Positions 22,573-34,756 of a DNA stretch of 41,459 bases are shown here, piece by piece. The DNA is from Candidatus Aminicenantes bacterium RBG_16_66_30 (lineage in GTDB: Bacteria > Acidobacteriota > Aminicenantia > Aminicenantales > Saccharicenantaceae), in the NCBI GenBank assembly GCA_001775715.1, contig MEYC01000077.1, positions 1-41,459 on the forward strand, read 5' to 3'. How positions within the stretch are numbered: the stretch's first letter is position 1; the number at the start of each line of letters is the position of its first letter. Both the position numbers and the translations under genes were made by a program. Below the pieces are notes generated by a model. The model did no database searches. It was not told the DNA's origin and saw nothing but the letters and a program-made list of their open reading frames with translations.

Positions 22573-22770
22573 TTACTTCGGCTTGTTCTTATCCGCTGCC
22601 AGGACCCCGGCCGCCATGTATTCCTTCGGCGAGAACTCCTGGACCCAGACCCTGATCGTCTCGAGCGGGGCGCCGATCGAATCATGGACGGCCGCCGTGA
22701 CCGCCGTGAGCAGGGCCTTCTTCTGTTCGTCCGTCCGCCCTTCGAGAAGGTGGATCTCAACGAGAGGCAT
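22573..22770 (-). CDS. 4-oxalocrotonate tautomerase-family enzyme
   Basis: 65 aa. MPLVEIHLLEGRT..EQKKALL..VT.AV is the canonical 4-OT fold sequence with catalytic Pro-1. AAGGAG Shine-Dalgarno sequence 6 nt upstream. Confidence 0.8.
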   Translation of the reverse strand: MPLVEIHLLEGRTDEQKKALLTAVTAAVHDSIGAPLETIRVWVQEFSPKEYMAAGVLAADKNKPK

Positions 22771-22886: not shown

Positions 22887-23228
22887 ATGGTCATCAAGAT
22901 CCGAGAGGCGGACAAGGTCGTCATCTTCGACGTCGAGGGAGAGATCCGCCGGTCCGATATCCCGCAGACGACCCTCCACAGCCTGGTCGAGGCCCAGCTC
23001 GACCGGGGCCGGCGGAAGGTCCTGGTCAACCTCCGCGGGGTGGATTTCATCGACAGCTTCGGCGTCGGCCAGATCCTGGCCAGCTACACCTCGACGCAGA
23101 ACCTGGGCGGCAAGTTCAAGCTTTGCGGGATATCCCAGAAGCTCCTCCTCATCTTCCAGATCACGATGCTGCACAAGGTCCTCGAGATCCACGAGGATTG
23201 CGACCGCGCCCTGGAGAGCTTTGGCTAA
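22887..23228 (+). CDS. STAS-domain anti-sigma-factor antagonist (RsbV/SpoIIAA-like)
   Basis: 113 aa. VVIFDVEGEI...LVNLRGVDFIDSFGVGQIL carries the conserved phosphorylatable Ser context (DFIDSxG). LKLCG-type strand (FKLCGIS). Confidence 0.85.
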   Translation: MVIKIREADKVVIFDVEGEIRRSDIPQTTLHSLVEAQLDRGRRKVLVNLRGVDFIDSFGVGQILASYTSTQNLGGKFKLCGISQKLLLIFQITMLHKVLEIHEDCDRALESFG

Positions 23229-23263
23229 GCGTTGCTCCGGGCGGGTCTGACGGGAGTGGCCGC

Positions 23264-25828
23264 GTGTCGCACGGCCGGCTCGAGCGCTTCCTGATCAAGT
23301 TCGGTGACGTCCGCGGCCGCGAGGCCCGGGCGGCCCTGAGCTTTTCCGCCTACTTTTTCCTCGTGACCTTCACCTTCTACATCATCAAGCCGATCAAGGA
23401 GAGCTTCCTTATCGGCTTCGCCAGGCCCGGCTGGTGGCCGTACGCCGACCTGGCCACGGCCCTCCTCATCGGCTTCGTCGTCGCCCTGAACGCCCGGCTG
23501 CTCAACCGGATGCCGCGGCGGACCTACCTCACGGCATCGCTTCTCTTCTTCGTCGCCGGCCTGTTCGCCTTCTGGTACGTCTTCGACGTCTTTCAGACCC
23601 AGGCCATCACGACCCCCGTCATCGATCCCTCCGGCATCGTCTTCTTCCTCTGGACGCAGGTCTTCATCATCAAGTCCTGGCCCCTTGCGGTCTTCGCCTT
23701 CTCCTTTTGGACCGACGTCTTCATCGCCATGTCCGTCACCCAGTTCTGGATCGCCGTCAACGACGTTTTCGATCCCCACCAGGCCAAGCGGCTCGTCGGC
23801 CTGTTCGTGACGGGCGGGCTTTTCGGCGGCATCGCCGGCTCGGCCGTGGCCGCGCTCGCCACCTTCGCCCGGATCCTCCGGCCGGAAGATCTGCTCCTCG
23901 TCGCTCCCGTCCTCCTGGCCCTGGCCTTGATCTCGGTCAACGTCGTCTACGCCGGGCAGCGCCAGGTCGACGCCGCCGTCGGGGACGGGCGCATCTCCGC
24001 CCCGGCCCGGGTGGGCCTCTGGGAAAGCTTCCGGGCGGTCCGGTCGAGCCGCTATCTCGTCCTCCTCGCGGCGATGCTGACCTCGGCCGTGGTCGCCGGG
24101 TCCCTCATCGGCTACCAGTTCAGGACCGTCGTCCGGAACGCCATCCAGAACCCCGCACAGCAAACGTCTTTCATTGCCGCCCTGTTCATGGGCATCCTGA
24201 TCGTCTCCACCGTGTTCCACCTGATCACAACCCGCCGCGTCCTCCAGTCCTACGGCATCCGCTGGGCCATCGTCATCGCCCCGGCCTTCCTTATCGCCGG
24301 GTCCCTGGCCGTCCTCCTCATCCCCGCCGGCCTCATCCTCTTCTGGGCTTGCGCCATCCGGGGCGCCGACAAGACCTTCGACAATACCATCAGCCAGTCC
24401 GTCCGGGAGCTTCTCTACATCCCCGTCCCGGCCGACGTCAAGTACAAGGGCAAGATCTTCATCGACATGTTCGTCAGCAAGTTCGCCACGGGCCTCGGCG
24501 CCGCCCTGTTCCTGGCGTTATACGGGCTCAGGAACTTCGCCTACCGGGACGACCAGACCCTCGCCAGCGCCCTGGTGATCGCCCGGGAGACGGGCTACGT
24601 GGCCCTGTTCTTCATGGCCCTCTGGCTCGTCCTGACGAGGCTCGTCTACCGGGAGTACCCGGCCATCCTCAAGAAGGATATCCGGAGGAAATGGCAGGAA
24701 GGCCAAGAGGCCCTCGACGCGAACGTCGACATCGATCTGACCCTCAAGATCTTCAACACCATCCAGAGCCGCGAGAGGAGCACGACGCTCTATTACATGA
24801 ACATCTTCAATCTCGTCCGCCACCGGAACCTGGCCCCCGAGCTCAAGGAGCTCCTCGGCATCAAACGGGACGAGCTCAAGGCCCGGGCCATGGACGCCCT
24901 CTTCGACGTCGGCGGCGGAGGCTTCTTCCCGGGTCTCGAGGAGACCATCGCCGACGCCGAATTCCAGAACGAGATCGACCTCATCTTCCTCCTGCCGTCC
25001 TACCAGGAGATCATGGGCAAGAGGCTCGGCGAGATCGTCGGCTCCGCCTCCGAAGTGGACCGGATCGAGGCGGCCAACAGCATCAGCCGGATGGTCCCGA
25101 CCGAGCCCACTCTCGAGGCCCTCGGCCGGCTCCTCCAGGACCCCTCCTCGGAGGTCGTCCTCTACGCCCTCGGCAGCGCGTCCGTCCACCGGCGTCCGGA
25201 ACACGTCCCTCTGATCCTCCTCCTGCTGGCCAATCCGGTGGCCCGCGACGAGGCCCAGAGGACGCTGGCCGCCTACGGCCCCGGCGTCGAGGACCTCCTC
25301 GCCGCGGCCCTCCGGGAGGAGACCGAGCCGCTGGACGTCCGCCGGGCCGTCCCGGAAGTCCTGGCCCGGATCGGCACTCAGCGCGCCGCCGACATCCTCC
25401 TCGAGACACTCGCCCTCCGCCGGGACGACCTGGAGCCGGCCCTCGTCGACGCCCTCTACAAGATCCGGGCCGACCGCCCCGGGGTCCGCTTCCGGGAGAG
25501 GTCCGTCCGGCCCGAGCTCCTGTCCCTGGCCCGGAAGGCCTGCGACGCCGCCCTCAACCCGTCCGGCTCCGGCGACGAGGCCCGGGCGGCCTTGACCATC
25601 CGGATCAAGCGCGTCTTCGACCTGATGACGCTCCTGTACCCCCGCGAGGACGTCGTCAACGCCTATCAGAACCTCATCCAGGGGACGGCCCGCTCCGCCG
25701 ACTACTCCCTGGAGAGCCTCGACATCCTTCTCGACCGCGACCTCAAGGGGCTCCTCTGGCCGCTCATCGAGGACCTCCCCGCGGAGGAGAGGGACCTGCG
25801 CCTGAAACGGGCGATGAGGTTGAAATGA
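23264..25828 (+). CDS. TLC-family (ATP/ADP translocase / Npt-like) membrane transporter fused to a roughly 390-aa C-terminal HEAT-repeat domain
   Basis: GTG start at 23264 behind GGGAG. The N-terminal half has TLC-type signatures: FFLVTFTFYIIKPIKESFL (compare LNYSTLRSIKD of rickettsial Tlc) and FWIAVNDVFDPHQAKRLVGLFVTGGLFGG (compare FWQFANQITKIAEAKRFY). About 12 TM segments. From about 24650 onward there are repeated helical-hairpin units (LGRLLQDPSSEVVLYALGSA..., VRRAVPEVLARIGTQRAADILLETL...) typical of HEAT/PBS-lyase repeats. Confidence 0.8.
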   Translation: MSHGRLERFLIKFGDVRGREARAALSFSAYFFLVTFTFYIIKPIKESFLIGFARPGWWPYADLATALLIGFVVALNARLLNRMPRRTYLTASLLFFVAGLFAFWYVFDVFQTQAITTPVIDPSGIVFFLWTQVFIIKSWPLAVFAFSFWTDVFIAMSVTQFWIAVNDVFDPHQAKRLVGLFVTGGLFGGIAGSAVAALATFARILRPEDLLLVAPVLLALALISVNVVYAGQRQVDAAVGDGRISAPARVGLWESFRAVRSSRYLVLLAAMLTSAVVAGSLIGYQFRTVVRNAIQNPAQQTSFIAALFMGILIVSTVFHLITTRRVLQSYGIRWAIVIAPAFLIAGSLAVLLIPAGLILFWACAIRGADKTFDNTISQSVRELLYIPVPADVKYKGKIFIDMFVSKFATGLGAALFLALYGLRNFAYRDDQTLASALVIARETGYVALFFMALWLVLTRLVYREYPAILKKDIRRKWQEGQEALDANVDIDLTLKIFNTIQSRERSTTLYYMNIFNLVRHRNLAPELKELLGIKRDELKARAMDALFDVGGGGFFPGLEETIADAEFQNEIDLIFLLPSYQEIMGKRLGEIVGSASEVDRIEAANSISRMVPTEPTLEALGRLLQDPSSEVVLYALGSASVHRRPEHVPLILLLLANPVARDEAQRTLAAYGPGVEDLLAAALREETEPLDVRRAVPEVLARIGTQRAADILLETLALRRDDLEPALVDALYKIRADRPGVRFRERSVRPELLSLARKACDAALNPSGSGDEARAALTIRIKRVFDLMTLLYPREDVVNAYQNLIQGTARSADYSLESLDILLDRDLKGLLWPLIEDLPAEERDLRLKRAMRLK

Positions 25829-25863
25829 CCCCGGCGCGTCATCTAGTATAGAGTAGTATAGAG
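25820..25863 (+). promoter_or_regulatory. Candidate internal promoter (TTGAAA-18-TAGTAT) overlapping a perfect tandem 10-mer (TAGTATAGAG x2)
   Basis: TTGAAA at 25820-25825. TAGTATAGAG lies at 25844-25853 and again at 25854-25863. This AT-rich patch sits in the 48-nt spacer before the ATG at 25877. Confidence 0.35.
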
Positions 25864-25876
25864 AGAGGCGAGACCC

Positions 25877-27556
25877 ATGGCCCAACTCTACATCTATCCG
25901 AAGACGGGGGAGCCCTCGAGCTTCCCGCTGGGCGCGCGCCGCGTGACGATCGGGCGCGCCTCGACGAACGATATCGTCCTGTCCGATCAGTACAGCTCGG
26001 GCGTCCACGCCGTCCTCGCCCCGTCCGAGAAGGGCTATGTCCTCATCGACCAGGGCAGCAAGAACGGGACCTTCGTCAACGGGCGCCGCGTCAACGGCGA
26101 GCTCGACCTCACCCGGGGCGACGAGATCCTCATCGGCTCGACCCGCTTCTACTTCGACCGGGACGTCCAGCCGGCCGTCGAGACGGTCGAAGGGACGACC
26201 TTCACCCACAGCTCCAACACGATCATCCAGGTCAAGGACATCCTCCGGAAGCCGTCCGCCACGTCCGTCCCCTTGAAGACCCCCGGCGGAGGGCTCGACC
26301 TCCAGCGCTTCCAGCAGGACCAGAAGATGAGCGCCGTCATCGGCGAGGTCAGCCAGGCCCTGATCTACCACATGCCGCTCGACAAGCTCCTCGAGCATAT
26401 CATGGACGTCCTCATCCAGCACCTGCCCATGGACCGGGGCGTCCTCATGCTGAAGAACGAGGTCTCCCAGGCCCTCGAGCCCAAGGTCGTCCGGGTCCAG
26501 AACGGGGCCCTGCGCACGCAGAGCATCTTCGTCAGCCAGACCATCGTCAAGACGGCCCTGGAGCGCAACTCGGCCATCCTCATCTCGGACATCCAGGCCG
26601 ACGAGGGGCTGCGGGCCCAGGCGAGCGTCGTGCAGGCCCAGATCCACTCGGCCATGTGCGTGCCGCTCTGGAACAACCAGGACATCATCGGCCTGATCTA
26701 CTGCGACCGAGCCTCCCTGCTCGAGCAGTTCTCCGAGGACGACCTGCGGCTCCTGACGCTCCTGGCCAACCTGGCCGCCGTCAAGATCGAGAACGCCCGT
26801 CTCTACGAGGAATCCGTCAAGGCCATGCAGTACGAGCGGGAGATGTCGCTGGCCGTTCAGATCCAGAAGAACTTCCTGCCCCGCGACGAGCCCGACTTCG
26901 CCCCCTACGACATCAGCGGCAACGCCCGGGCCTGCCGCCACGTCGGCGGCGACTACTACGACTACATCCCCGTCGAGAAGGACCGCCTGGCCATCGTCAT
27001 CGCCGACGTGTCCGGCGTCGGCGTCAGCGCGTCCCTCCTCATGGCTTCCCTCCGGGGCGCGCTCCACGAACGGTTCCCGGCGGACTTCGGGCTGAGCGAC
27101 CTGACCTCGAAGCTCAACGACTTCGTCTACGCGAGCTCGGACAGCCACTGTTTCATCTCCTTCTTCCTGGCCGTCCTCGACCGCCGCGCGCACGAGCTCG
27201 CTTACGTCAACGCCGGGCACAATCCGCCCCTCGTCGTCGGGGCCGGAGGCGGGGTCCAGACGCTCGCGTCGACGGGGCTCTGCCTGGGGATGTTCCCCGC
27301 CCAGCCCTACGAGGAACGCCGGCTCACCCTCGCCCCGGGCGACATCCTCTGCCTGTACACGGACGGGATCGTCGAGAGCCGGAAGGGCGAGGCCGAGGAA
27401 TACGGGGACGCCCGGCTGGCCGAGCGGGTCCGGGAGCACAGCGGCCTCACGGCCATGGAGATCCGGGACAGGATCTTCGAGGACGTCTTCGCCTTCAGCG
27501 GCTGCACCGAAGCCGGGGACGACATGACGCTCGTCGTCGTCAAACGGGAGCGGTGA
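25877..27556 (+). CDS. FHA-GAF-PP2C (SpoIIE/RsbU-type) serine phosphatase
   Basis: FHA domain: RVTIGRASTNDIVL...SGVHAVL...LIDQGSKNGTFVNG. The central domain is GAF-like. PPM domain: GGDYYDY, IADVSGVGVSASLLMA, LYTDGIVE, GDDMTLVVVK. Confidence 0.9.
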   Translation: MAQLYIYPKTGEPSSFPLGARRVTIGRASTNDIVLSDQYSSGVHAVLAPSEKGYVLIDQGSKNGTFVNGRRVNGELDLTRGDEILIGSTRFYFDRDVQPAVETVEGTTFTHSSNTIIQVKDILRKPSATSVPLKTPGGGLDLQRFQQDQKMSAVIGEVSQALIYHMPLDKLLEHIMDVLIQHLPMDRGVLMLKNEVSQALEPKVVRVQNGALRTQSIFVSQTIVKTALERNSAILISDIQADEGLRAQASVVQAQIHSAMCVPLWNNQDIIGLIYCDRASLLEQFSEDDLRLLTLLANLAAVKIENARLYEESVKAMQYEREMSLAVQIQKNFLPRDEPDFAPYDISGNARACRHVGGDYYDYIPVEKDRLAIVIADVSGVGVSASLLMASLRGALHERFPADFGLSDLTSKLNDFVYASSDSHCFISFFLAVLDRRAHELAYVNAGHNPPLVVGAGGGVQTLASTGLCLGMFPAQPYEERRLTLAPGDILCLYTDGIVESRKGEAEEYGDARLAERVREHSGLTAMEIRDRIFEDVFAFSGCTEAGDDMTLVVVKRER

Positions 27557-27571
27557 GGGACGGGGCAGGCC

Positions 27572-27991
27572 ATGGCGCGAACGGACCTCCGCGAGATCGT
27601 CGTCCCGGCCGACCTCAAGGACGTCGACCGCGTCCGGGGGTTCCTGAACGACTACACCGCCGGCCTGGGGCTCGACGAGGAAGACCGGCTCAAGATCGAG
27701 CTCGCGCTCCACGAGATCTGCGTCAACATCGCCATGTACGCCTACCCCCAGGAGCCCCGCGGCCTCATGGCCATCCGCATCTGGCGCGAAGGCGGAGCGC
27801 TCGTCATCGAGGTCCGGGACAAAGGCGTTCCGTTCAATCCGGTCAAGAGGAAGAACCCCGACCTGATGCTCAAGCTGCGGCGCGGGCTGCCCGGAGGCCT
27901 GGGCGTGTATTTCTACCGGACCCTCATGGACGGCCTGTCCTACCGGCGGGCGCGGGGCGAGAACGTCCTGACTGTCCGCAAAGCCCTTTGA
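27572..27991 (+). CDS. RsbW/SpoIIAB-like anti-sigma-type serine protein kinase (HATPase_c_2)
   Basis: 139 aa. N-box HEICVNIAMYA, VRDKGVPFNP (D-box-like) and GLPGGLGVYF (G-box). Last gene of the STAS operon. Confidence 0.85.
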   Translation: MARTDLREIVVPADLKDVDRVRGFLNDYTAGLGLDEEDRLKIELALHEICVNIAMYAYPQEPRGLMAIRIWREGGALVIEVRDKGVPFNPVKRKNPDLMLKLRRGLPGGLGVYFYRTLMDGLSYRRARGENVLTVRKAL

Positions 27992-28067
27992 CCTGACCTA
28001 TTCATAAAAAACGCCCGGTTCTTCTCCATTGCGGTCTTAATAGGGCGTTTTTATGAATAAGTCAGGT
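27991..28067. terminator. Bidirectional intrinsic terminator / long AT-rich inverted repeat between the two convergent modules
   Basis: ACCTGACCTATTCATAAAAAACGCCC (27991-28016) pairs with GGGCGTTTTTATGAATAAGTCAGGT (28043-28067), with one mismatch and one indel. The inner CGCCC/GGGCG stem is flanked by an A-tract and a T-tract, so it reads as a terminator in both directions. It fills essentially the whole 79-nt spacer. Confidence 0.65.
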
Positions 28068-28070
28068 GGA

Positions 28071-28901
28071 TCAGTAGAGGACCTTAGCCTCCCCGTTGAC
28101 CTTGATGAGCCGGTCGATCTCCTGCAGGATGAGGTCGCGCCGGACGAGGACGGCCTCGATCTCCGCGTCCGTGAGATACTCCCCGACGACGGCCTTGATG
28201 CCCGCGAGATCGAGGCTCCGGACCTTGTCGACGATGGCCCGGGGCAGCTCGCTCATGAGCTTCGGGCCCTCGGGGTTCTTGGCCGAATAGAGCAGGGTCT
28301 TGACGAACCGGCCCGAGGTCCGGAACGAGCGGGAGTGGTCGATGAGGATCATCCGCCAGTCGGGCGCGATGAAGACGTTGTTCTTATGCCGGTCCTCGTT
28401 GGCGATGAGGTTGTCGAAGAACCGCTGGAGGTAGGTCGCCCGGTTCCAGGAGAAGTTCTTGGCCAACGGCATCTTGATCCTTTTTTCGTCGCGGTCCCGG
28501 AGCGACATGCTGTCATCGATCCAGTACTGGCAGGACCCCCGCTCGCCGCGGAACCGGCGCTCGACGGTCGGCGGGACCATACCCAGGCCGAGATGCTTGT
28601 CGAGCAGGTAGGCGGCGATCTCGTAGGTCCAGCCCTCCCAGTAGCCGCCCATGCGGCCCTGGGCGTTCTTCCAGAGGCCCCGGTGAGTGACCTCGCCCTT
28701 CTCGAGCGTCAGGATCCAGGGCTTGGTCACGGCCTCGGACCCCCCCATCTGCTCGCTCGAGACGACCTCCGCGGTCCTGAGGAAGTCCTCGCAGGTCTCG
28801 CGCTGTTTGAGCTCGTCAGCCGTGAATTGGAGGGCCAGGAGGGACCCCGCGGCCAGGGACAGAGCCGCGACCGATATCACCCATCCACGTCGTCTGTGCA
28901 T
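28071..28901 (-). CDS. Exported PI3/PI4-kinase-like (protein-kinase-fold) domain protein, paralogue K1
   Basis: Start MHRRRGWVISVAALSLAAGSLLA (signal or anchor) behind GGAGGA. Kinase-like landmarks: LWKN (candidate beta3 Lys), YEIAAYLLDKHLGLGMVPPTVER, QYW, NEDRHKNN (equivalent to DRHxxN of the PI3/4K catalytic loop) and LIDHSRSF (DFG-equivalent). The functional call is by motif only. Confidence 0.65.
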   Translation of the reverse strand: MHRRRGWVISVAALSLAAGSLLALQFTADELKQRETCEDFLRTAEVVSSEQMGGSEAVTKPWILTLEKGEVTHRGLWKNAQGRMGGYWEGWTYEIAAYLLDKHLGLGMVPPTVERRFRGERGSCQYWIDDSMSLRDRDEKRIKMPLAKNFSWNRATYLQRFFDNLIANEDRHKNNVFIAPDWRMILIDHSRSFRTSGRFVKTLLYSAKNPEGPKLMSELPRAIVDKVRSLDLAGIKAVVGEYLTDAEIEAVLVRRDLILQEIDRLIKVNGEAKVLY

Positions 28902-28958
28902 CCTATCCTCCGTCAGCCTCGGTAATCCCGCACGCACCGGGGGCGGCCCGGGCCGCCC

Positions 28959-29798
28959 TCAATAGATGACCGCGGCCTCTCCCAACTCTTTGATCATGCC
29001 GGCGATCTCCGCGAGCAGGAGGTCGCGGCGCGCGAGGACGGCCTTGATCTCCCGGTCCTTGAGCGTCTCCCCGACGGCGGCCTTGATATTCTCGAAGGTC
29101 AAGGTCCGGATCTTGTCGACGAACCAGCGGGGCAGGCGGCGGAAGAGCCACGGCGTGCCCTGCGAGGACACCTTGATCCCGTCGCGGCCGAACATGAGGC
29201 GCTTGATGAACTCCCCGGTCGACCGGAAGGCCCGGGAGTGGTCGAAGAGGACCATCCGCCAGTCCTCGGTGTAGAGGACGTTCTGCTGGGTCCGGTCCTC
29301 GTTGGCGATGAGGCTGTCCCAGGCCCGGGCGATATATTTCATCTTCTCGGTGTGGTCGAGAACCTCGTCGGGGATGCGGATCCCGTCCTCGGCGATCTTG
29401 AGCAGGCTGTATTTGCTCTCGGCCCAGAGGACGAGCGCGCCGGGGCTTCCGAGGAACTTACGCTCAACGGCCGGCGGGACCATGTTCAGGCCGATGAGCT
29501 TGTCGAGACGGTAGGCAGCGATCTCGTACTGCCAGCCCTCGAGATAGCCGCCCATCTGGCCGTGAGGGTTCTTCCAGGCGGCCTTCCCCTCGACGTCGCC
29601 CTTCTTGAGATAGAGCTTCCAGGGCTTGGTCACGCCCTCGCCGATGGGCTCGGACCGGACGATCTCGGCCGTGCGCAGGAACTCCTCCTGGGACTCTCGT
29701 TGGGCGATCTCCTCGGGCCGGAACTGGGCCGAGGCCGGCCGGGGCGCGGCTGCCAATGCGAACGCCAGGGCCACAGCGAGAATGGTGACGCGTTTCAT
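28959..29798 (-). CDS. Exported PI3/PI4-kinase-like domain protein, paralogue K2
   Basis: Start MKRVTILAVALAFALAAAPRPASAQ (classic signal peptide, AxA site) behind GGGAGGGAG. Collinear with K1: EEFLRTAEIV, AAWKN, YEIAAYRLDKLIGLNMVPPAVER, NEDRTQQN, LFDHSRAF. Confidence 0.65.
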   Translation of the reverse strand: MKRVTILAVALAFALAAAPRPASAQFRPEEIAQRESQEEFLRTAEIVRSEPIGEGVTKPWKLYLKKGDVEGKAAWKNPHGQMGGYLEGWQYEIAAYRLDKLIGLNMVPPAVERKFLGSPGALVLWAESKYSLLKIAEDGIRIPDEVLDHTEKMKYIARAWDSLIANEDRTQQNVLYTEDWRMVLFDHSRAFRSTGEFIKRLMFGRDGIKVSSQGTPWLFRRLPRWFVDKIRTLTFENIKAAVGETLKDREIKAVLARRDLLLAEIAGMIKELGEAAVIY

Positions 29799-29857
29799 GG
29801 GCTCCCTCCCGTCGACCGGGCCATCTGAAAAAATCATAGCCCCTTTGGGCCTTGATT

Positions 29858-31360
29858 TCAAGCCGCCGCCGCGGCCCCTTCAGCGGCCGCCTTGCGCCTC
29901 TTGTAGGCCTTGATGATCCGGAGGCAGATCACGAAGAGGACGGCGACAACGGCGACGTTGAGCAAGGCGTAGCGCTCGATCGGGAGGCCGAGGAGCGTGA
30001 CCCCGGCGAACACGGCCAGGGCGGAGAGCGTGTCCCCGCCCCGGACGAAGAAGGTGTCGATGGCCGCCTTGGCCTTGTATTTCTCCTCCCTCTTAGTGAC
30101 GAGGAAGAGGGCGGCCTTGGTCGTGTTCTGGAGGGAATAGTCCGTGCCGTTCTCGACGGCCTTGACCCAGCGGACGAGGAGGAAGACGGCCCCGAAGGAG
30201 ATCAGGGCGTAGCCGCCCAGGGCGATGATCGGCAGAAAGAGCAGGGCCCCGCCGACGCCGACCCACTTGAAAACTCGCGAGACGAGGAAGAGCTGGATGA
30301 CCAGGGCGATCAGGTTCGTCAGGAACTGGTAGTTCATGAAGGCGCTATGGATGGCCTTGCTCTCTGTCTTCGTCGCGACGGGGGGCGAGGCGGACGGCAG
30401 TCCCTCCGCAGCCGCCGCCCCGGCCTCCGCTCCCGGCCGGAGGGCCGGCGCGTCCGCGGGCGCCGGGGCGGCGGCCGCGATCGACCGCTTGACCGTGACG
30501 TCGGTCATGATGAACTCCCCGGTCGCGTTGACGAAGTTGTAGAGGCCGATCATGACGGCGATGAGGAGGAGATAGCGGCTCCCGAAGATGAGGCGGAATC
30601 CGCCGCCGGTCTTGAGGGGTTGCTCCTGGACCTGGGCCCTTTCTTCGGCCCCGGCCAGGCCCTTCTCCCGCTCGTCGCGGGTTTTGCGGACGTCCCGCCG
30701 GTGGATCAGCCTGGCCAGGACGATGCAAAGGAGGAGGATCACCCCGGCGATGAGCATGAGCTTGAATTCCCAGTTTCCGCCGAGGAGGTCCCTCAGCTTC
30801 TTCATGAACGGCAGGGTCGCGATGAGCCCGCCGAGCGTCGCGCCCAGGGCGACGAGGGGAAAGGTCCGCTTGCCGACTTCCTCCGAATAGAGGTCGTTGG
30901 CGAAGCCCCAGAACTGGGCGATGACGAAGTAGTTGAAGATGCCGACCCAGATGAAGAACATGATGCCCATGGGCTTGACGGCCATGCCGCCGGCGTGGAG
31001 GGCGTAAAAGAGGACGAGATTGGAGATGAAGAACGATGTCGTCCAGGTTATAAGGGCATGCCGGGGGACCTTGGAGGCCAGGCGGCTGAAGGCCTTGATG
31101 ACGAAAACGAACAGGACGGCTTGGGCCCCGCTCAGGTAGCTTTTGACGGGGGCGGAGTCCTTGTCCACGAGGAGGAGCGACTCGCGCAGGGGCTTGAGGA
31201 TGTAATAGGCGAGGAGCAGGAGGAAGATGTTGAGCGCCAGGAGGAGCGCCTTGGGGGCCTCGCCTTGCCGGACGTCGGCGAAGATCCTCAGCAACCTGTA
31301 GCCGACGCCGTAGCGGGCCGCGCCCGGGGGCGGTGAGGCCGCCGGCGGGGCATCGGGCAT
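29858..31360 (-). CDS. TLC-family (ATP/ADP translocase / Npt-like) nucleotide transporter homologue
   Basis: 500 aa and about 12 TM segments. LLLAYYILKPLRESLLL and AQFWGFANDLYSEEVGKRTFPLVALGATLGG match the two best-conserved TLC blocks. AAAGGAG Shine-Dalgarno sequence in the 22-nt gap after the upstream gene. Ala/Pro-rich insert at aa 294-333. Confidence 0.85.
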   Translation of the reverse strand: MPDAPPAASPPPGAARYGVGYRLLRIFADVRQGEAPKALLLALNIFLLLLAYYILKPLRESLLLVDKDSAPVKSYLSGAQAVLFVFVIKAFSRLASKVPRHALITWTTSFFISNLVLFYALHAGGMAVKPMGIMFFIWVGIFNYFVIAQFWGFANDLYSEEVGKRTFPLVALGATLGGLIATLPFMKKLRDLLGGNWEFKLMLIAGVILLLCIVLARLIHRRDVRKTRDEREKGLAGAEERAQVQEQPLKTGGGFRLIFGSRYLLLIAVMIGLYNFVNATGEFIMTDVTVKRSIAAAAPAPADAPALRPGAEAGAAAAEGLPSASPPVATKTESKAIHSAFMNYQFLTNLIALVIQLFLVSRVFKWVGVGGALLFLPIIALGGYALISFGAVFLLVRWVKAVENGTDYSLQNTTKAALFLVTKREEKYKAKAAIDTFFVRGGDTLSALAVFAGVTLLGLPIERYALLNVAVVAVLFVICLRIIKAYKRRKAAAEGAAAAA

Positions 31361-31382
31361 CGCTGGGCTCCTTTCCGCGTCG

Positions 31383-33239
31383 TCAGAAGAGGACGTTCTG
31401 CTCCCCGGCCATCTTGATCCGAAGGCGGATCGTGCGGACGATCTCGGCCCGGCGGGCGTTGAGGGCGGCGGTCTCCGCCGGATCGAGGAAGCGGCCGACG
31501 TATTCGGCGACGGTCCTGTCGTCCCAGCCGAGGAGCTTCTTGTAGAGGAGGCGCGAGACCCGGAGGATGGGGCAGCGGGCCGGGGGACGCTTGTCCGGCG
31601 CGAAGGCCTCGGAGAAGTCGACCCGGTAGATCCGGCCGTCGTCGCCGCTGATCAGGGTGTCCCGCTCGTTGTGGCAGTCGTCGAAGGCGAGGTTCTGGAA
31701 GACCAGGAGGTCGGCCAGGGCCTTTTCGTGCGCGTTGGGATCGATAAGATCGACCTTCTTTTCCTTGCGCTCCGCTTCCGACATGGCGTTGGGGACGAAG
31801 ACCTGGACGGCCCCGGGGGTTCCCTCGACGGTCCGCTCGACGATGGGCGGGACGATGCCGACATCGAGGTACTTGTTGAGGGCGTAGGCGGCGAGCTCGT
31901 ACCGGTAGCTGTCCGCGAGCGGCTCGGGCCGTCGCCGGTCGACATACTTGAAAAGGGCCGTGAGGACGACGCCCTGGGATTCCAGGGTGAGCTTCCAGGC
32001 GTCGGTCCGGCCGCCGGGCCCGGGCCCGCGGCCGGTGATCGAGGCCGTCCGGAGGAAGGTCTCCATCTCCTTGCGGGTCAGCGGTTTGAGGGGAGGCGGC
32101 TTGATGCCGCTGCGGGCGGCCACCTCCTCGGTCTCGCCCCAGAGCCGGAACTCGCCGTTCTCGTAGATCAAGGCCGAGGGGACGCCGCCGTAGCTTCCGG
32201 CGATGCCCGTATCCATGATCCAGACCTTGTCCTGGAAGCGGGCGATGTGCTGCTTCGTGATGACCGGGCTCCGGCCGCCGCCGTAGGCGAAAAAATTGTG
32301 CCCGATGACCATGGCCCGGGCGCCCATGTTTTGCAGGATCCGGTCCACCTCGGCCTGGGCCGCCCGTCCGCTTTCGGCCAGCCCGCGGAACCAGAGCGGG
32401 CCGTCGGGGTTGTAAACGACCTTCGGCTTGAAGGGGCGGGCGGTCCGCTGGGGGTCGCGCATGATCGCTCGGAACTGCTGGAGCTCCGAGCGGACGACAG
32501 TGTTGATCTCCCGGAGCGGCCATTTGGAGAATTCCTCGCTGATGCCCCCGTGGACATAGACGACGCCGTTGATCATAACGACAGTGTTCTTCTTGATGAA
32601 CCAGTCGCCGACGCTGTCGTTGAAGCCCTCGACGTAGGCCCGCCGGGCCTCGGGGTCCTTGCTGGCGATGATCGATCGCCAGAAGTCGGCCACCCCCTGA
32701 TCGGTCTCGACGTCGAGGCCGTCGATCTCGGCGCGCCTACGCTCCTCCGGGGGGAGGGACCGGATGTACCCGGCCTCGCGGGCCCTGCGGAAATCCTCGG
32801 GCAGGAACGACACGAGCTGCTCGACCGTGACGTAGTTCGGGTAGTCCAGGGCGATCCCGGTGACGTTCATCTCTTCGTGGTTGCCGAGGAGCACATGGAC
32901 CATGCCGCCGGCGGCCTCGGCCTCCTTCTCGAGGCGCATGAGCAGATCGATGATCCGGCGGGCGTGGGGGCCCCGGTCCAGGATGTCGCCGAGCTGGACG
33001 AGGTGGGCCTTGCCGCCGATCCAGCGGAGGTCGTTGTCGATGAGGGCGACCTGAGGGTGGGCGAGGATGTAGATGAACTGCTCGAAGTCGCCATGGAGGT
33101 CGGCGACGGCCACGACGCGGTCGATGCCCGTCCAGGCGTAGGGGGTCTCCTCGGCCGGGGAGGAGAGGGCGAGCAGGGCGAGAAAGAGCAGGAGAAGAAG
33201 GAGCGGCGATCGGAGGCGGTCCTTCCTTCGAGCTGACAT
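31383..33239 (-). CDS. Exported fusion protein: PPP-family (Shelph/ApaH-like) metallophosphoesterase plus a C-terminal PI3/PI4-kinase-like domain (paralogue K3)
   Basis: Signal peptide LLLLLLFLALLALSSPAEE. PPP motifs VADLHGD, GDILDRGP, GNHE, VHGG and IGHN. The C-terminal 230 aa are collinear with K1/K2 (METFLRTASI, ALFKY, YELAAYALNKYLDVGIVPPIVER, RVDFSEAF). The catalytic loop is altered (DDCHNERD). Confidence 0.85.
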   Translation of the reverse strand: MSARRKDRLRSPLLLLLLFLALLALSSPAEETPYAWTGIDRVVAVADLHGDFEQFIYILAHPQVALIDNDLRWIGGKAHLVQLGDILDRGPHARRIIDLLMRLEKEAEAAGGMVHVLLGNHEEMNVTGIALDYPNYVTVEQLVSFLPEDFRRAREAGYIRSLPPEERRRAEIDGLDVETDQGVADFWRSIIASKDPEARRAYVEGFNDSVGDWFIKKNTVVMINGVVYVHGGISEEFSKWPLREINTVVRSELQQFRAIMRDPQRTARPFKPKVVYNPDGPLWFRGLAESGRAAQAEVDRILQNMGARAMVIGHNFFAYGGGRSPVITKQHIARFQDKVWIMDTGIAGSYGGVPSALIYENGEFRLWGETEEVAARSGIKPPPLKPLTRKEMETFLRTASITGRGPGPGGRTDAWKLTLESQGVVLTALFKYVDRRRPEPLADSYRYELAAYALNKYLDVGIVPPIVERTVEGTPGAVQVFVPNAMSEAERKEKKVDLIDPNAHEKALADLLVFQNLAFDDCHNERDTLISGDDGRIYRVDFSEAFAPDKRPPARCPILRVSRLLYKKLLGWDDRTVAEYVGRFLDPAETAALNARRAEIVRTIRLRIKMAGEQNVLF

Positions 33240-33247
33240 CTGCCTCT

Positions 33248-33276
33248 TTTATATCGCTTTTCCGGCGGTGAATCAA
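33248..33276 (-). promoter_or_regulatory. Sigma70-type promoter (TTGATT-17-TATAAA) 8 nt upstream of the ATG at 33239, driving the phosphatase/TLC/kinase-like operon
   Basis: On the minus strand, TTGATT lies at 33276-33271 and TATAAA at 33253-33248, followed by agaggcag and the ATG. This gives a leaderless or near-leaderless transcript. Confidence 0.5.
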
Positions 33277-33358: not shown

Positions 33359-34756
33359 ATGAACGGACGGTCTGGCGGCGGAGAGACGAGGGCGAAGGGC
33401 GAATGGCTGCGGGGGCGGGGAGCGGCGGTTGCCTTGCTGGCCTTGGCGTCGGTCCTGGCTTTGAGCGCGTGCGGGGGCGGGGGCGATCGGCCTTCCGCCA
33501 CGGGGCCGGAGGGGTCCGGTCCGGGCGCGACCGGGGCGGCGCCGGTCTGGGCGGGCGTCGACGTCCTCTTGGCGAAGCGCCTCGACCTCGTCGAGGGAAA
33601 GCGGGTCGGGCTGATCACGAACCAGACGGGCGTCGACGGGTCCCTCCGGACGACGATCGACCGGCTCAAAGCGGAGCCCGCGATCCGGCTCGTCGCGCTC
33701 TACGGCCCTGAACACGGAGTCCGCGGGAACGCCCAGGCCGGCGAGTACGTGCCGTTCTATTTCGACGACAAATTCGGGCTCCCGGTGTTCAGCCTCTACG
33801 GGCAGTCCATGAAGCCCGATCCGGGCATGCTCAAGAACATCGACGCCTACATGCGCGCGTTCGACACGAAGGAGGCGGGCAAGGTCCCCGCGGCGGCCAT
33901 GGTCGAGGGCATCGACGTCCTGATCTTCGACATCCAGGACGTCGGGACGCGCGTCTACACCTACGTCTCGACCATGGCCTACGCGATGCAGGCCGCGGCC
34001 GAGGCGGGCATCGATTTCGTCGTCCTCGACCGGCCGAACCCCGTCAACGGCGTCGGCATGGAGGGGCCTATCCTCGAATACCCTCAATACAGCTCGTTCG
34101 TGGGGCTTTTCCCCATCCCCGAGCGGCACGGCATGACGGCCGGCGAGCTGGCCCGGCTGTTCAACGACAAGTTCCTGGCCCGCAAGGCCCGGCTGACGGT
34201 CGTGCCCATGGAGGGTTGGAAGCGGGAGATGTGGTTCGACGAGACCCGCCTGCCCTGGGTCATCCCGTCGCCCAACATGCCGACCCTCGACACGGCCACG
34301 GTCTACCCCGGGCTCGTGGCCATCGAGGGGACGAACCTCAGCGAGGGCCGGGGGACGACGCGGCCGTTCGAGCTCTTCGGGGCGCCCTGGATCGACGCCT
34401 ACGGCTTGGCCGCGAAGCTCAACGCCCTGGGCCTGCCCGGGGTGCGGTTCCGGGAGGCCTGGTTCACGCCCTACTTCTCGAAGTTCGCCGGGGAGCGCTG
34501 CGGCGGCTGCCAGGTCCACGTGACGGACCGGGCCGCGTTCCGGCCGTTCGCGACGATGCTCCACATCGTCAAGACTGTCCGGGACGCCTATCCGGCCGAG
34601 TTCGCGTTCCACCCGGACTACTTCGACAAGGTCATGGGCACGGCCTCGGTGCGGGCGGCCCTCGAGGCCGGTTCCGACGTCGCGGCCATCCTCGAGACGT
34701 TCGAGCCCGGCCTCCGGGCCTTCGCCGCCCTCCGCCAACCCTATCTGCTTTATTAG
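33359..34756 (+). CDS. DUF1343-family lipoprotein (exo-beta-N-acetylmuramidase NamZ-like)
   Basis: Lipobox LALSAC. GKRVGLITNQTGVD, LYGPEHG, LIFDIQDVGTRVYTY and VVLDRPNP are the conserved DUF1343/NamZ blocks, recalled from memory; no search was run. Confidence 0.8.
   Translation: MNGRSGGGETRAKGEWLRGRGAAVALLALASVLALSACGGGGDRPSATGPEGSGPGATGAAPVWAGVDVLLAKRLDLVEGKRVGLITNQTGVDGSLRTTIDRLKAEPAIRLVALYGPEHGVRGNAQAGEYVPFYFDDKFGLPVFSLYGQSMKPDPGMLKNIDAYMRAFDTKEAGKVPAAAMVEGIDVLIFDIQDVGTRVYTYVSTMAYAMQAAAEAGIDFVVLDRPNPVNGVGMEGPILEYPQYSSFVGLFPIPERHGMTAGELARLFNDKFLARKARLTVVPMEGWKREMWFDETRLPWVIPSPNMPTLDTATVYPGLVAIEGTNLSEGRGTTRPFELFGAPWIDAYGLAAKLNALGLPGVRFREAWFTPYFSKFAGERCGGCQVHVTDRAAFRPFATMLHIVKTVRDAYPAEFAFHPDYFDKVMGTASVRAALEAGSDVAAILETFEPGLRAFAALRQPYLLY

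Follow-up and report, generated by a model that had tools for sequence, protein, structure and literature searches.

How would kinases exported from the cytoplasm be supplied with ATP in the periplasm, a compartment treated in textbooks as ATP-free? This question is raised by a gene cluster of Candidatus Aminicenantes bacterium RBG_16_66_30, located in a stretch of 41,459 nucleotides of contig MEYC01000077.1 (hereafter the window). Between positions 28071 and 33239, four co-directional open reading frames (ORFs) on the minus strand encode a fusion of a PPP phosphatase and a kinase-like domain (PPP-K3), a transporter of the TLC/NTT family, and two further proteins bearing the kinase-like domain, K2 and K1. 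An earlier note on this DNA had described three exported PI3/PI4-kinase-like paralogues with a phosphatase and a nucleotide transporter, and had proposed an extracytoplasmic phosphorylation system. What it had observed in the sequence stands, and its interpretation is supported in part, the export of ATP to feed a kinase/phosphatase cycle being a step that we still infer. The four outcomes by which the note would have considered itself refuted were each looked for, and none overturned the idea. An extracytoplasmic phosphorylation module is the best reading of the cluster and one for which we consider the case evenly balanced, with ATP export, a substrate and kinase activity as its conjectural parts. 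Homology, fold, residue conservation, export signals and genomic coupling rest on sequence and structure prediction.

The four genes follow each other closely. The PPP-K3 fusion (31383-33239, minus strand, 618 amino acids) comprises a predicted signal peptide (residues 1 to ~28), the PPP domain (residues ~36-368) and the K3 domain (residues ~386-618). The MFS-like transporter (29858-31360, minus strand, 500 amino acids) has no HEAT domain. K2 (28959-29798, minus strand, 279 amino acids from the ATG of MKRVTIL) and K1 (28071-28901, minus strand, 276 amino acids from the ATG of MHRRRGW) are predicted exported FAM20-like kinase-domain proteins. The gaps of 22, 59 and 57 nucleotides given by the earlier note hold with the likely starts of K2 (ATG at 29798) and K1 (ATG at 28901), which agree with the lengths of database orthologues (278 amino acids for K2 in the related loci L002 and L003). 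The top database relatives of all four proteins come from metagenome-assembled genomes of Candidatus Aminicenantes and Acidobacteriota, and the uniform base composition (~63-69% GC) gives no sign of recent insertion.

The K domain is a relative of FAM20 kinases

K1 and K2 share 51% identity (E 5e-85), and K1 aligns with the C-terminal 230 amino acids of the 618-residue protein, K3, at 29% identity (E 5e-22), which bears out the claim that three of the four products carry the same domain. The collinear blocks on which that claim had been built, namely FLRTA, a [WF]K dipeptide, YE[IL]AAY.L[DN]K..VPP.VER, NEDRHKNN / NEDRTQQN / DDCHNERD and [IFV]D[HF]S..F, were all found in the three-way alignment.

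The AlphaFold2 model of K1 (predicted local distance difference test, pLDDT, 84.6; predicted template modelling score, pTM, 0.84) was matched by Foldseek to the type II PI 4-kinases PI4KII alpha/beta at the top (E ~1e-7), then to PI3Ks and to Helicobacter pylori CtkA, with E values up to 3e-5 and template modelling (TM) scores of 0.47-0.61. The K3 domain of the fusion model was instead matched to FAM20C, FAM20A and FAM20B (E 8e-8 to 6e-6). The same relatives appeared in sequence searches. A profile of the three paralogues retrieved the pseudokinase FAM20A among PDB sequences at E 7e-6, and a profile of 43 diverse family members, searched against the same database, retrieved FAM20A (E 1.2e-14), FAM20C (E 3.7e-10 and 1.4e-9), the xylosylkinase FAM20B (E 3.9e-8) and Caenorhabditis elegans Fam20 (E 6.5e-8), followed by PI4KII alpha/beta at E ~1e-3. 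The alignment of K with FAM20 spans the beta3 Lys, EIAAY.LD..L....VPPTV.R, FD.LI.N.DR, IDHSRAF (LDNGRGF in FAM20) and the C-terminal helices.

When the 43 diverse members were scanned individually, TIGR03843 (the uncharacterised actinobacterial, PI3/PI4-kinase-like SCO1664 family) was the best curated-model match, found for 43 of 43 K domains with a best E value of 1.8e-18, and was followed by PI3_PI4_kinase (29 members), HipA_2 (28), Fam20C (21), Kdo kinase (10), ABC1 (8) and FAM198 (6). Every family matched by more than four of the 43 is a kinase family, and the non-kinase Pfam matches were weak, with at most four members each. The protein-kinase-like fold of the K domain is thus what the models, Foldseek and the profiles all predict, and a non-kinase placement was not seen among them. 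The kinase part of the earlier PI3/PI4-kinase-like label is retained; the closest relatives are the FAM20 kinases and the SCO1664 family rather than PI3/PI4-kinases proper.

The K family nonetheless lies outside these families as they are currently modelled. K1 scored below the Pfam gathering thresholds of Fam20C (PF06702, 12.9 versus 26.8 bits), PI3_PI4_kinase (PF00454, 15.1 versus 27.1 bits) and HipA_2 (PF20613, 12.4 versus 27 bits), and the Pfam matches of the K domain were all sub-threshold and confined to the catalytic loop (PI3_PI4_kinase, HipA_2, Fam20C, FAM198). Because of these scores, we regard the K family as a relative, not a member, of Fam20C, PI3_PI4_kinase and HipA_2. The scores against the NCBIfam model TIGR03843 are also far under its cut-off of 172.4 bits, at 44.6 for K1 (E 1e-11), 26.9 for K2 and 19.3 for K3. 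The family counts 4259 representatives at 50% identity and is covered by no Pfam, NCBIfam or PADLOC model; the database relatives of K1 are all named 'hypothetical protein'. A role in anti-phage defence was considered and rejected, PADLOC having given only matches of catalytic-loop length with E values of at least 7e-4.

K1 and K2 keep the catalytic residues that K3 has lost

The alignment assigns to K1, and likewise to K2, a Lys (K78), a Glu (E94), the Asp and Asn of an Asp-x4-Asn loop (D170/N175) and a metal-binding Asp (D188) (K1 numbering). K1 combines NEDRHKNN with LIDHSRSF, giving DRHKNN and IDHS, and K2 combines NEDRTQQN, giving DRTQQN, with FDHS, so that each has the full catalytic-loop and metal-Asp set. 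Equivalents of K78 and E94 are found in K1, K2 and K3. Conservation was assessed over 150 representatives, each standing for one cluster at 50% identity. Among aligned representatives, 116 of 141 retain the catalytic Asp, 114 the Mg-binding Asn and 138 of 140 the DFG-like Asp; at the alpha-C Glu, 112 of the 150 have E and 12 have D, and the beta3 position holds K in 86 of 146, R in 33, Q in 17 and H in some others. The proposed catalytic Asp, Asn and DFG-like Asp are therefore conserved across the family.

K3 departs from this pattern. In its loop, DDCHNERD, Cys replaces the catalytic Asp, His the Arg and Asp the Asn; of the catalytic-loop Asp and Asn and the DFG-like Asp, only the last is kept. 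The Cys is invariant in 51 orthologues, and the pattern marks a small clade (11 of the 150 family representatives). Since the catalytic Asp is replaced by Cys and the Asn by Asp, K3 is probably a pseudokinase, or an enzyme with altered chemistry. Where three kinases had been counted, two that keep their catalytic residues and probably one pseudokinase are left.

The K proteins carry predicted export signals

Export was assessed by a heuristic, combining the Kyte-Doolittle hydropathy of the N-terminus, with controls, and a count of lipoboxes. The N-termini of K1, K2 and PPP-K3 display positive charge followed by strong hydrophobicity, with a maximal 10-residue hydropathy of 2.4-3.5, against 0.5-1.5 for three cytoplasmic control proteins of the same window. 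The predicted Sec signal peptide of K2 ends in ASA-Q. Across the family, an N-terminal hydrophobic signal was detected in 125 of 150 representatives, whereas an internal control segment gave 6 of 150, and a hydrophobic N-terminal segment was present in 115/115 full-length PPP-K3 orthologues. A lipobox of the form L-x-[GAS]-C occurs in 47 of 119 K1 orthologues. By this heuristic, the signal-peptide-like N-termini noticed earlier are near-universal in the K family, and, following the positive-inside rule, the K domains would lie on the periplasmic side with the signal either cleaved or retained. Export through the Tat pathway of a folded kinase already loaded with ATP was considered unlikely: the twin arginines are not conserved, with KK or KR in many orthologues, and the hydrophobic regions are strongly hydrophobic or lipobox-bearing.

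An intact phosphatase and a divergent TLC/NTT-family carrier

The phosphatase domain passes the Pfam Metallophos model (PF00149, 41.3 bits versus a cut-off of 21.5). Its nearest relative is the Shewanella cold-active protein-tyrosine phosphatase (1v73/2z72/2zbm), matched at E 2e-33 by sequence and, for 1v73, at E 1e-15 with a TM-score of 0.67 by Foldseek; plant RLPH2 was matched more weakly, and the Ap4A hydrolases PrpE and ApaH weakly. The PPP motifs named earlier (GDxHG, GDxxDRG and GNHE) take the form DLHGD, GDILDRG and GNHE here and do not vary across 51 orthologues; nor do the residues D47/H49/D51, D85/D88/R89, N120/H121, H230 and H314. These data point to an exported phosphatase of the Shewanella tyrosine-phosphatase type that is, as judged from its residues, catalytically intact. 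The AlphaFold2 model of the whole fusion has a pLDDT of 79.7 and a pTM of 0.57, with a low-confidence linker.

The 500-residue transporter passes the Pfam TLC model (PF03219, 64.8 bits versus a cut-off of 21). A profile built from it and its relatives retrieved the solved Npt1-type NTT carriers 9j3n (E 1.4e-20) and 9j3j (E 2.7e-11) over most of the protein, and the transporter shares with them the motifs FWGFAN and K.K[GA]KAAID. Its assignment to the TLC family was therefore correct, with the amendment that it sits on a divergent, distant branch. Orthologues, annotated as ATP:ADP antiporter or Npt1/Npt2, are 77-99% identical, tighter than those of the K proteins, and the protein is under strong constraint. 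An Ala/Pro-rich low-complexity loop between its two halves (residues ~290-335) differs in length and sequence even in orthologues that are 80-90% identical elsewhere.

K, PPP and TLC genes are linked beyond Aminicenantes

One genome per GTDB species was scanned with a degenerate DNA motif drawn only from the K catalytic region and designed for D.L[IV].N.DR...N-12-DH.R.F; all of the 119 loci retrieved (119/119) contain true K genes. Most belong to Acidobacteriota (Aminicenantes, Vicinamibacterales, Thermoanaerobaculia, Bryobacterales and Terriglobia), the others being some Gemmatimonadota, a Chondromyces assembly and three Gammaproteobacteria. The loci are 8-kb blocks in which K lies at an arbitrary position and its neighbours are partly visible, so that the counts of neighbours are lower bounds. 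A PPP gene was fused to K or within 1.5 kb of it at 40 of the 119 loci (in the same ORF at 14), and a TLC gene lay within 3 kb at 34 (within 500 bp at 25). Among the 107 loci whose K protein is less than 60% identical to those of the window, PPP was found within 1 kb at 33, TLC within 1.5 kb at 18 (within 600 bp at 14), and both at nine. The Pfam TLC model was passed by each of the 24 TLC-like neighbours tested; HEAT repeats occur in 15 of them, cNMP_binding in five, and 15 also match MFS_1, TLC being a family of the MFS clan.

Adjacency of K or PPP-K to TLC was seen in Bryobacterales, Thermoanaerobaculia, Vicinamibacterales, Terriglobales and the three Gammaproteobacteria, and its orientation varies, being co-directional at L028, L030 and L083, convergent at L033, L044 and L104, and divergent at L042 and L113. 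In the cultured Thioalkalivibrio sp. XN8 (L044), a signal-bearing PPP-K fusion with intact DRNLGN and IDHSRAF lies tail-to-tail with a TLC gene. TLC genes are rare, with an estimated handful per several thousand genes; under this assumption, an adjacency at 13-21% of loci exceeds chance by about two orders of magnitude. The linkage of TLC and PPP to K, whose conservation the earlier note had made a test of its idea, therefore recurs in other orders and in another phylum, although TLC adjacency concerns a minority of the distant K loci and most K paralogues are solitary.

All-against-all clustering of the ORFs of these loci revealed no other family that recurs beside K. It otherwise returned an antisense artefact (a 107-locus 'family' opposite K), synteny restricted to Aminicenantes, and Pkinase/sigma-54 regulators, which are likely background from families that should be common in such genomes. 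Synteny within Aminicenantes extends over the cluster and all of its surroundings (NamZ, glutamine synthetase and a STAS operon), and taken alone proves little about linkage. Outside Aminicenantes, the usual module is likely a PPP-K fusion with an active-looking kinase site and a TLC or TLC-HEAT carrier. In Aminicenantes, K was likely duplicated into the free, often lipid-anchored K1 and K2, and the fused copy lost its catalytic Asp.

Two side observations concern these loci. In some Aminicenantes, among them Candidatus Saccharicenans subterraneus, three tandem stand-alone K genes lie beside TLC (L038, 3012-5522; L066, 2007-4511). The TLC ORF of Thioalkalivibrio sp. XN8 (L044, 4576-6339, plus strand) seems to run ~100 nucleotides into the 3' end of the PPP-K gene with which it converges; its C-terminal extension probably explains the single match to He_PIG, a putative Ig domain, among the 24 TLC neighbours.

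Transcription and neighbouring genes

Is the cluster a single operon? The promoter-like element TTGATT-17-TATAAA cited earlier is present at 33248-33276 on the minus strand, with its -35 hexamer at 33276-33271 and its -10 hexamer at 33253-33248. It was missed by the consensus scan because the final base of the -10 hexamer is A, and it ends 8 nucleotides ahead of the ATG of PPP-K3, so that the mRNA would be leaderless or nearly so. That this element serves all four genes was not established. The consensus scan has a better promoter-like site ahead of K2, TTGAAA-17-TATGAT in the TLC-K2 gap (29833-29861, minus strand, 10 of 12 matches), and the claim of a single operon is unconfirmed. A small terminator-like hairpin (29851-29838) follows that site.

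The cluster is also split exactly at K2 in two long contigs of related genomes. In the 3.18-Mb contig of GCA_041304185.1 (L001), K2-K1 are preceded by the unrelated genes DUF6599, DUF362 and RmuC, and in the 2.43-Mb contig of GCA_041320535.1 (L123), PPP-K3, TLC and K2 are followed by unrelated genes. The full cluster is present in other assemblies that encode an identical K1 or PPP-K3 protein (L002, L125). The split may reflect a genuine rearrangement or a chimeric assembly joined at the K paralogues. In view of the site before K2 and of this split, K2-K1 may be transcribed separately, from their own promoter.

Several genes flank the cluster. Divergent from it lies a gene for an exported NamZ exo-beta-N-acetylmuramidase (33359-34756, plus strand), with a lipobox-like LALSAC N-terminus. 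Convergent with K1, an operon on the plus strand (22887-27991) contains four genes that form a partner-switching module around a TLC-HEAT transporter: a STAS anti-anti-sigma-like protein (22887-23228), the transporter (in an ORF that opens at 23123 and extends to 25828, with an uncertain start), an FHA-GAF-SpoIIE (PP2C) phosphatase (25877-27556) and an RsbW-like HATPase_c_2 kinase (27572-27991). The transporter, listed at 23264-25828 (plus strand, ~850 amino acids), is a second, distant TLC paralogue with Pfam TLC and HEAT_2 matches, which we associate only tentatively with the cluster and which the partner-switching module might regulate. This arrangement is kept in the Aminicenantes loci L002, L003 and L125. 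Upstream of the STAS gene lies a 65-residue ORF resembling 4-oxalocrotonate tautomerase (22573-22770, minus strand); it and NamZ were found in the Aminicenantes synteny only. Long antisense ORFs (290-1064 amino acids) over real genes, for example at 24518-27712 (minus strand), 28053-28925 (plus strand) and 29852-31336 (plus strand), are artefacts of the high GC content.

A proposed phosphorylation cycle and its alternatives

In the mechanism that we propose, the TLC carrier would exchange cytoplasmic ATP for periplasmic ADP, together with inorganic phosphate (Pi), in the manner of the NTT antiporters of plastids and intracellular bacteria. The exchanged ATP would feed the exported kinases K1 and K2, which would phosphorylate an envelope or secreted substrate, be it a protein, a glycan or a lipid. 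The PPP phosphatase would reverse or edit the mark left by K1 and K2, and K3, as a pseudokinase, would target or regulate the phosphatase or the kinases, like FAM20A for FAM20C. The stoichiometry of an ATP/ADP(+Pi) exchange would exactly recycle the products of such a kinase/phosphatase cycle. We put forward only tentatively, as possible rather than probable, that an NTT-type carrier runs in the ATP-out/ADP(+Pi)-in direction and that the periplasm of some bacteria is thereby deliberately energised for a widespread family of exported FAM20-like kinases, paired or fused with PPP phosphatases, in a reversible phosphorylation of envelope or secreted substrates.

Several points weigh against this proposal. 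ATP would be expected to leak from a periplasm bounded by a porin-containing outer membrane. A fused kinase-phosphatase, if unregulated, would run a futile cycle, unless both activities were controlled or acted on different sites. The beta3 position is a Lys in only 86 of the 146 representatives, being otherwise R, Q or H, and the TLC protein is divergent, scoring 54.2 bits against the cut-off of 387.2 of the NTP/NDP exchange transporter model TIGR00769. TLC lies within 1.5 kb at only 18 of the 107 distant K loci, those outside Aminicenantes; where at least 2 kb can be seen to either side of K, at 26 of the distant loci, TLC is absent throughout and PPP is present at five, which argues that most K paralogues work without an adjacent carrier. 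Finally, the characterised NTTs all import nucleotides, and the NTT and NTT-HEAT proteins that free-living bacteria possess have yet to be characterised (PMC5381601).

The import direction of the characterised carriers (PMC5381601) would suit a scavenging module, in which TLC imports external nucleotides after the exported phosphatase and the K domains have processed or bound nucleotides or organophosphates. Pfam places the phosphatase among generic metallophosphoesterases, PrpE and ApaH are matched weakly, and the cluster adjoins the NamZ muramidase, a recycling enzyme. We find this unlikely: it leaves no role for the conserved kinase catalytic apparatus, which needs an extracellular phosphate donor, the nearest phosphatase relatives are protein-tyrosine phosphatases (1v73, RLPH2) and not nucleotidases, and the NamZ adjacency is seen only in the Aminicenantes synteny. 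The K proteins might alternatively be real exported kinases fed from elsewhere, by ATP from lysed neighbours, host or prey, or by polyphosphate, TLC adjacency then reflecting co-regulation or another role in the envelope. Most K loci have no adjacent TLC, some secreted bacterial kinases, such as CtkA, itself a structural match of K1, work at sites that already contain ATP, and the cargo of an MFS-clan carrier, 15 of 24 of which match MFS_1, need not be a nucleotide. Yet TLC adjacency is far above plausible chance and persists through changes of gene order across phyla, and the lipoprotein anchor of many K1 orthologues speaks for a role in the cell's own envelope; this explanation, too, strikes us as improbable.

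Still less probable, in our view, is that the K domains are non-catalytic ligand-binding or scaffold pseudokinases that direct the phosphatase or sense the nucleotides moved by the carrier. Such a role would fit the Cys that replaces the catalytic Asp in K3 and in 11 of the 150 representatives, the ~18% of the family without the Asp, the variable beta3 Lys and the fact that the top PDB sequence match is the pseudokinase FAM20A. Against this, K1, K2 and ~80% of the family keep D-x4-N and the following Asp, and the metal-binding Asp is present in 138 of 140 representatives, a pattern that would be difficult to account for without catalysis. That the adjacency is mere inherited synteny, with no functional coupling, agrees with the syntenic state of the whole Aminicenantes neighbourhood (NamZ, glutamine synthetase, STAS operon), and we give it very little credence: the three families occur together in distant orders and in Gammaproteobacteria, in differing orientations and with no other common neighbours, and PPP and K are repeatedly fused in one polypeptide.

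Relation to known systems

The components of the proposed phosphorylation module come from known superfamilies. For the system as a whole, we met with no prokaryotic counterpart in the literature; the eukaryotic endoplasmic reticulum (ER)/Golgi FAM20 kinases with a lumenal ATP exchanger come nearest to it. The animal FAM20 proteins (the Golgi casein kinase FAM20C, the xylosylkinase FAM20B and the pseudokinase FAM20A) have a kinase core homologous to the K domain, sharing EIAA[FY].LD..L....VPP.V.R, FD.LI.N.DR, [LI]D[NH].R.F and the C-terminal helices. Both families are exported from the cytosol by a signal peptide, both include a pseudokinase paralogue and both depend on ATP outside the cytosol, which FAM20 kinases receive from a nucleotide exchanger of the ER and Golgi. 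By contrast, the K domain is bacterial, is much smaller at ~240 amino acids, lacks the FAM20 insertion domains and has a DR[NHT]xxN loop where FAM20 has DRHHYE, and it is coupled to a PPP phosphatase and a TLC/NTT carrier, whereas FAM20 is coupled to an SLC35-type carrier.

Other relatives resemble single parts of the module. To our knowledge, no export signal or TLC/PPP linkage has been described for the SCO1664 family. Type II PI 4-kinases, PI3K/PI4K and CtkA are the top structural matches of the K1 model and share with it a DRHxxN-type loop, but the sequence similarity of K to the lipid kinases is marginal (15.1 versus 27.1 bits for PF00454; E 1e-3 for PI4KII), and K has no lipid-kinase accessory domain. 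All the metal and catalytic motifs of the Shewanella-like phosphatases (Shelphs; 1v73, 2z72) and of RLPH2 are found in the PPP domain, which differs by its C-terminal kinase-like fusion and its linkage to a carrier; we know of no Shelph with such a fusion or carrier context. Chlamydia Npt1 and plastid NTT1 share the Pfam TLC family, FWGFAN and KxK[GA]KAAID with the carrier of the window, which is very divergent from characterised NTTs and belongs to an apparently free-living host, and the proposed export of ATP reverses their classical role. CotH, the spore-coat kinase, acts in the mother-cell cytoplasm, so that it needs neither export signal nor carrier. The CotH kinases are a known bacterial family with similarity to FAM20C (PMC12189002) and, like K, are atypical bacterial protein-kinase-like enzymes related to FAM20; membership of K in that family was rejected, no K domain having matched the Pfam CotH model. 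NTT-HEAT and NTT-HEAT-cNBD architectures, catalogued in free-living bacteria with no known function (PMC5381601), were also seen here among the TLC neighbours of K in other taxa. Full-text literature searches on bacterial FAM20-like kinases, periplasmic kinases and periplasmic ATP turned up neither exported bacterial FAM20-like kinases nor a kinase-PPP-NTT module nor a carrier-mediated supply of ATP to the periplasm, in agreement with the earlier note, whose author knew of no described system of this composition.

If the proposal is true, the working assumption of a Gram-negative periplasm devoid of ATP-dependent chemistry would fall, and there would be a bacterial counterpart of phosphorylation in the eukaryotic secretory pathway, with its lumenal kinase, pseudokinase, phosphatase and nucleotide exchanger. 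It would also give the NTT/TLC and NTT-HEAT carriers catalogued in free-living bacteria (PMC5381601) their first functional context, and it would point to the exported bacterial kinases as evolutionary relatives, or the source, of the animal FAM20 kinases, including their arrangement of kinase and pseudokinase. The hypothesis can be tested in a cultured carrier of the module, Thioalkalivibrio sp. XN8. Read as cautiously as possible, the data still define the K proteins as a large family, exported and kinase-like, that has gone without annotation, and no bacterial proteins closer to FAM20 were found in this analysis.

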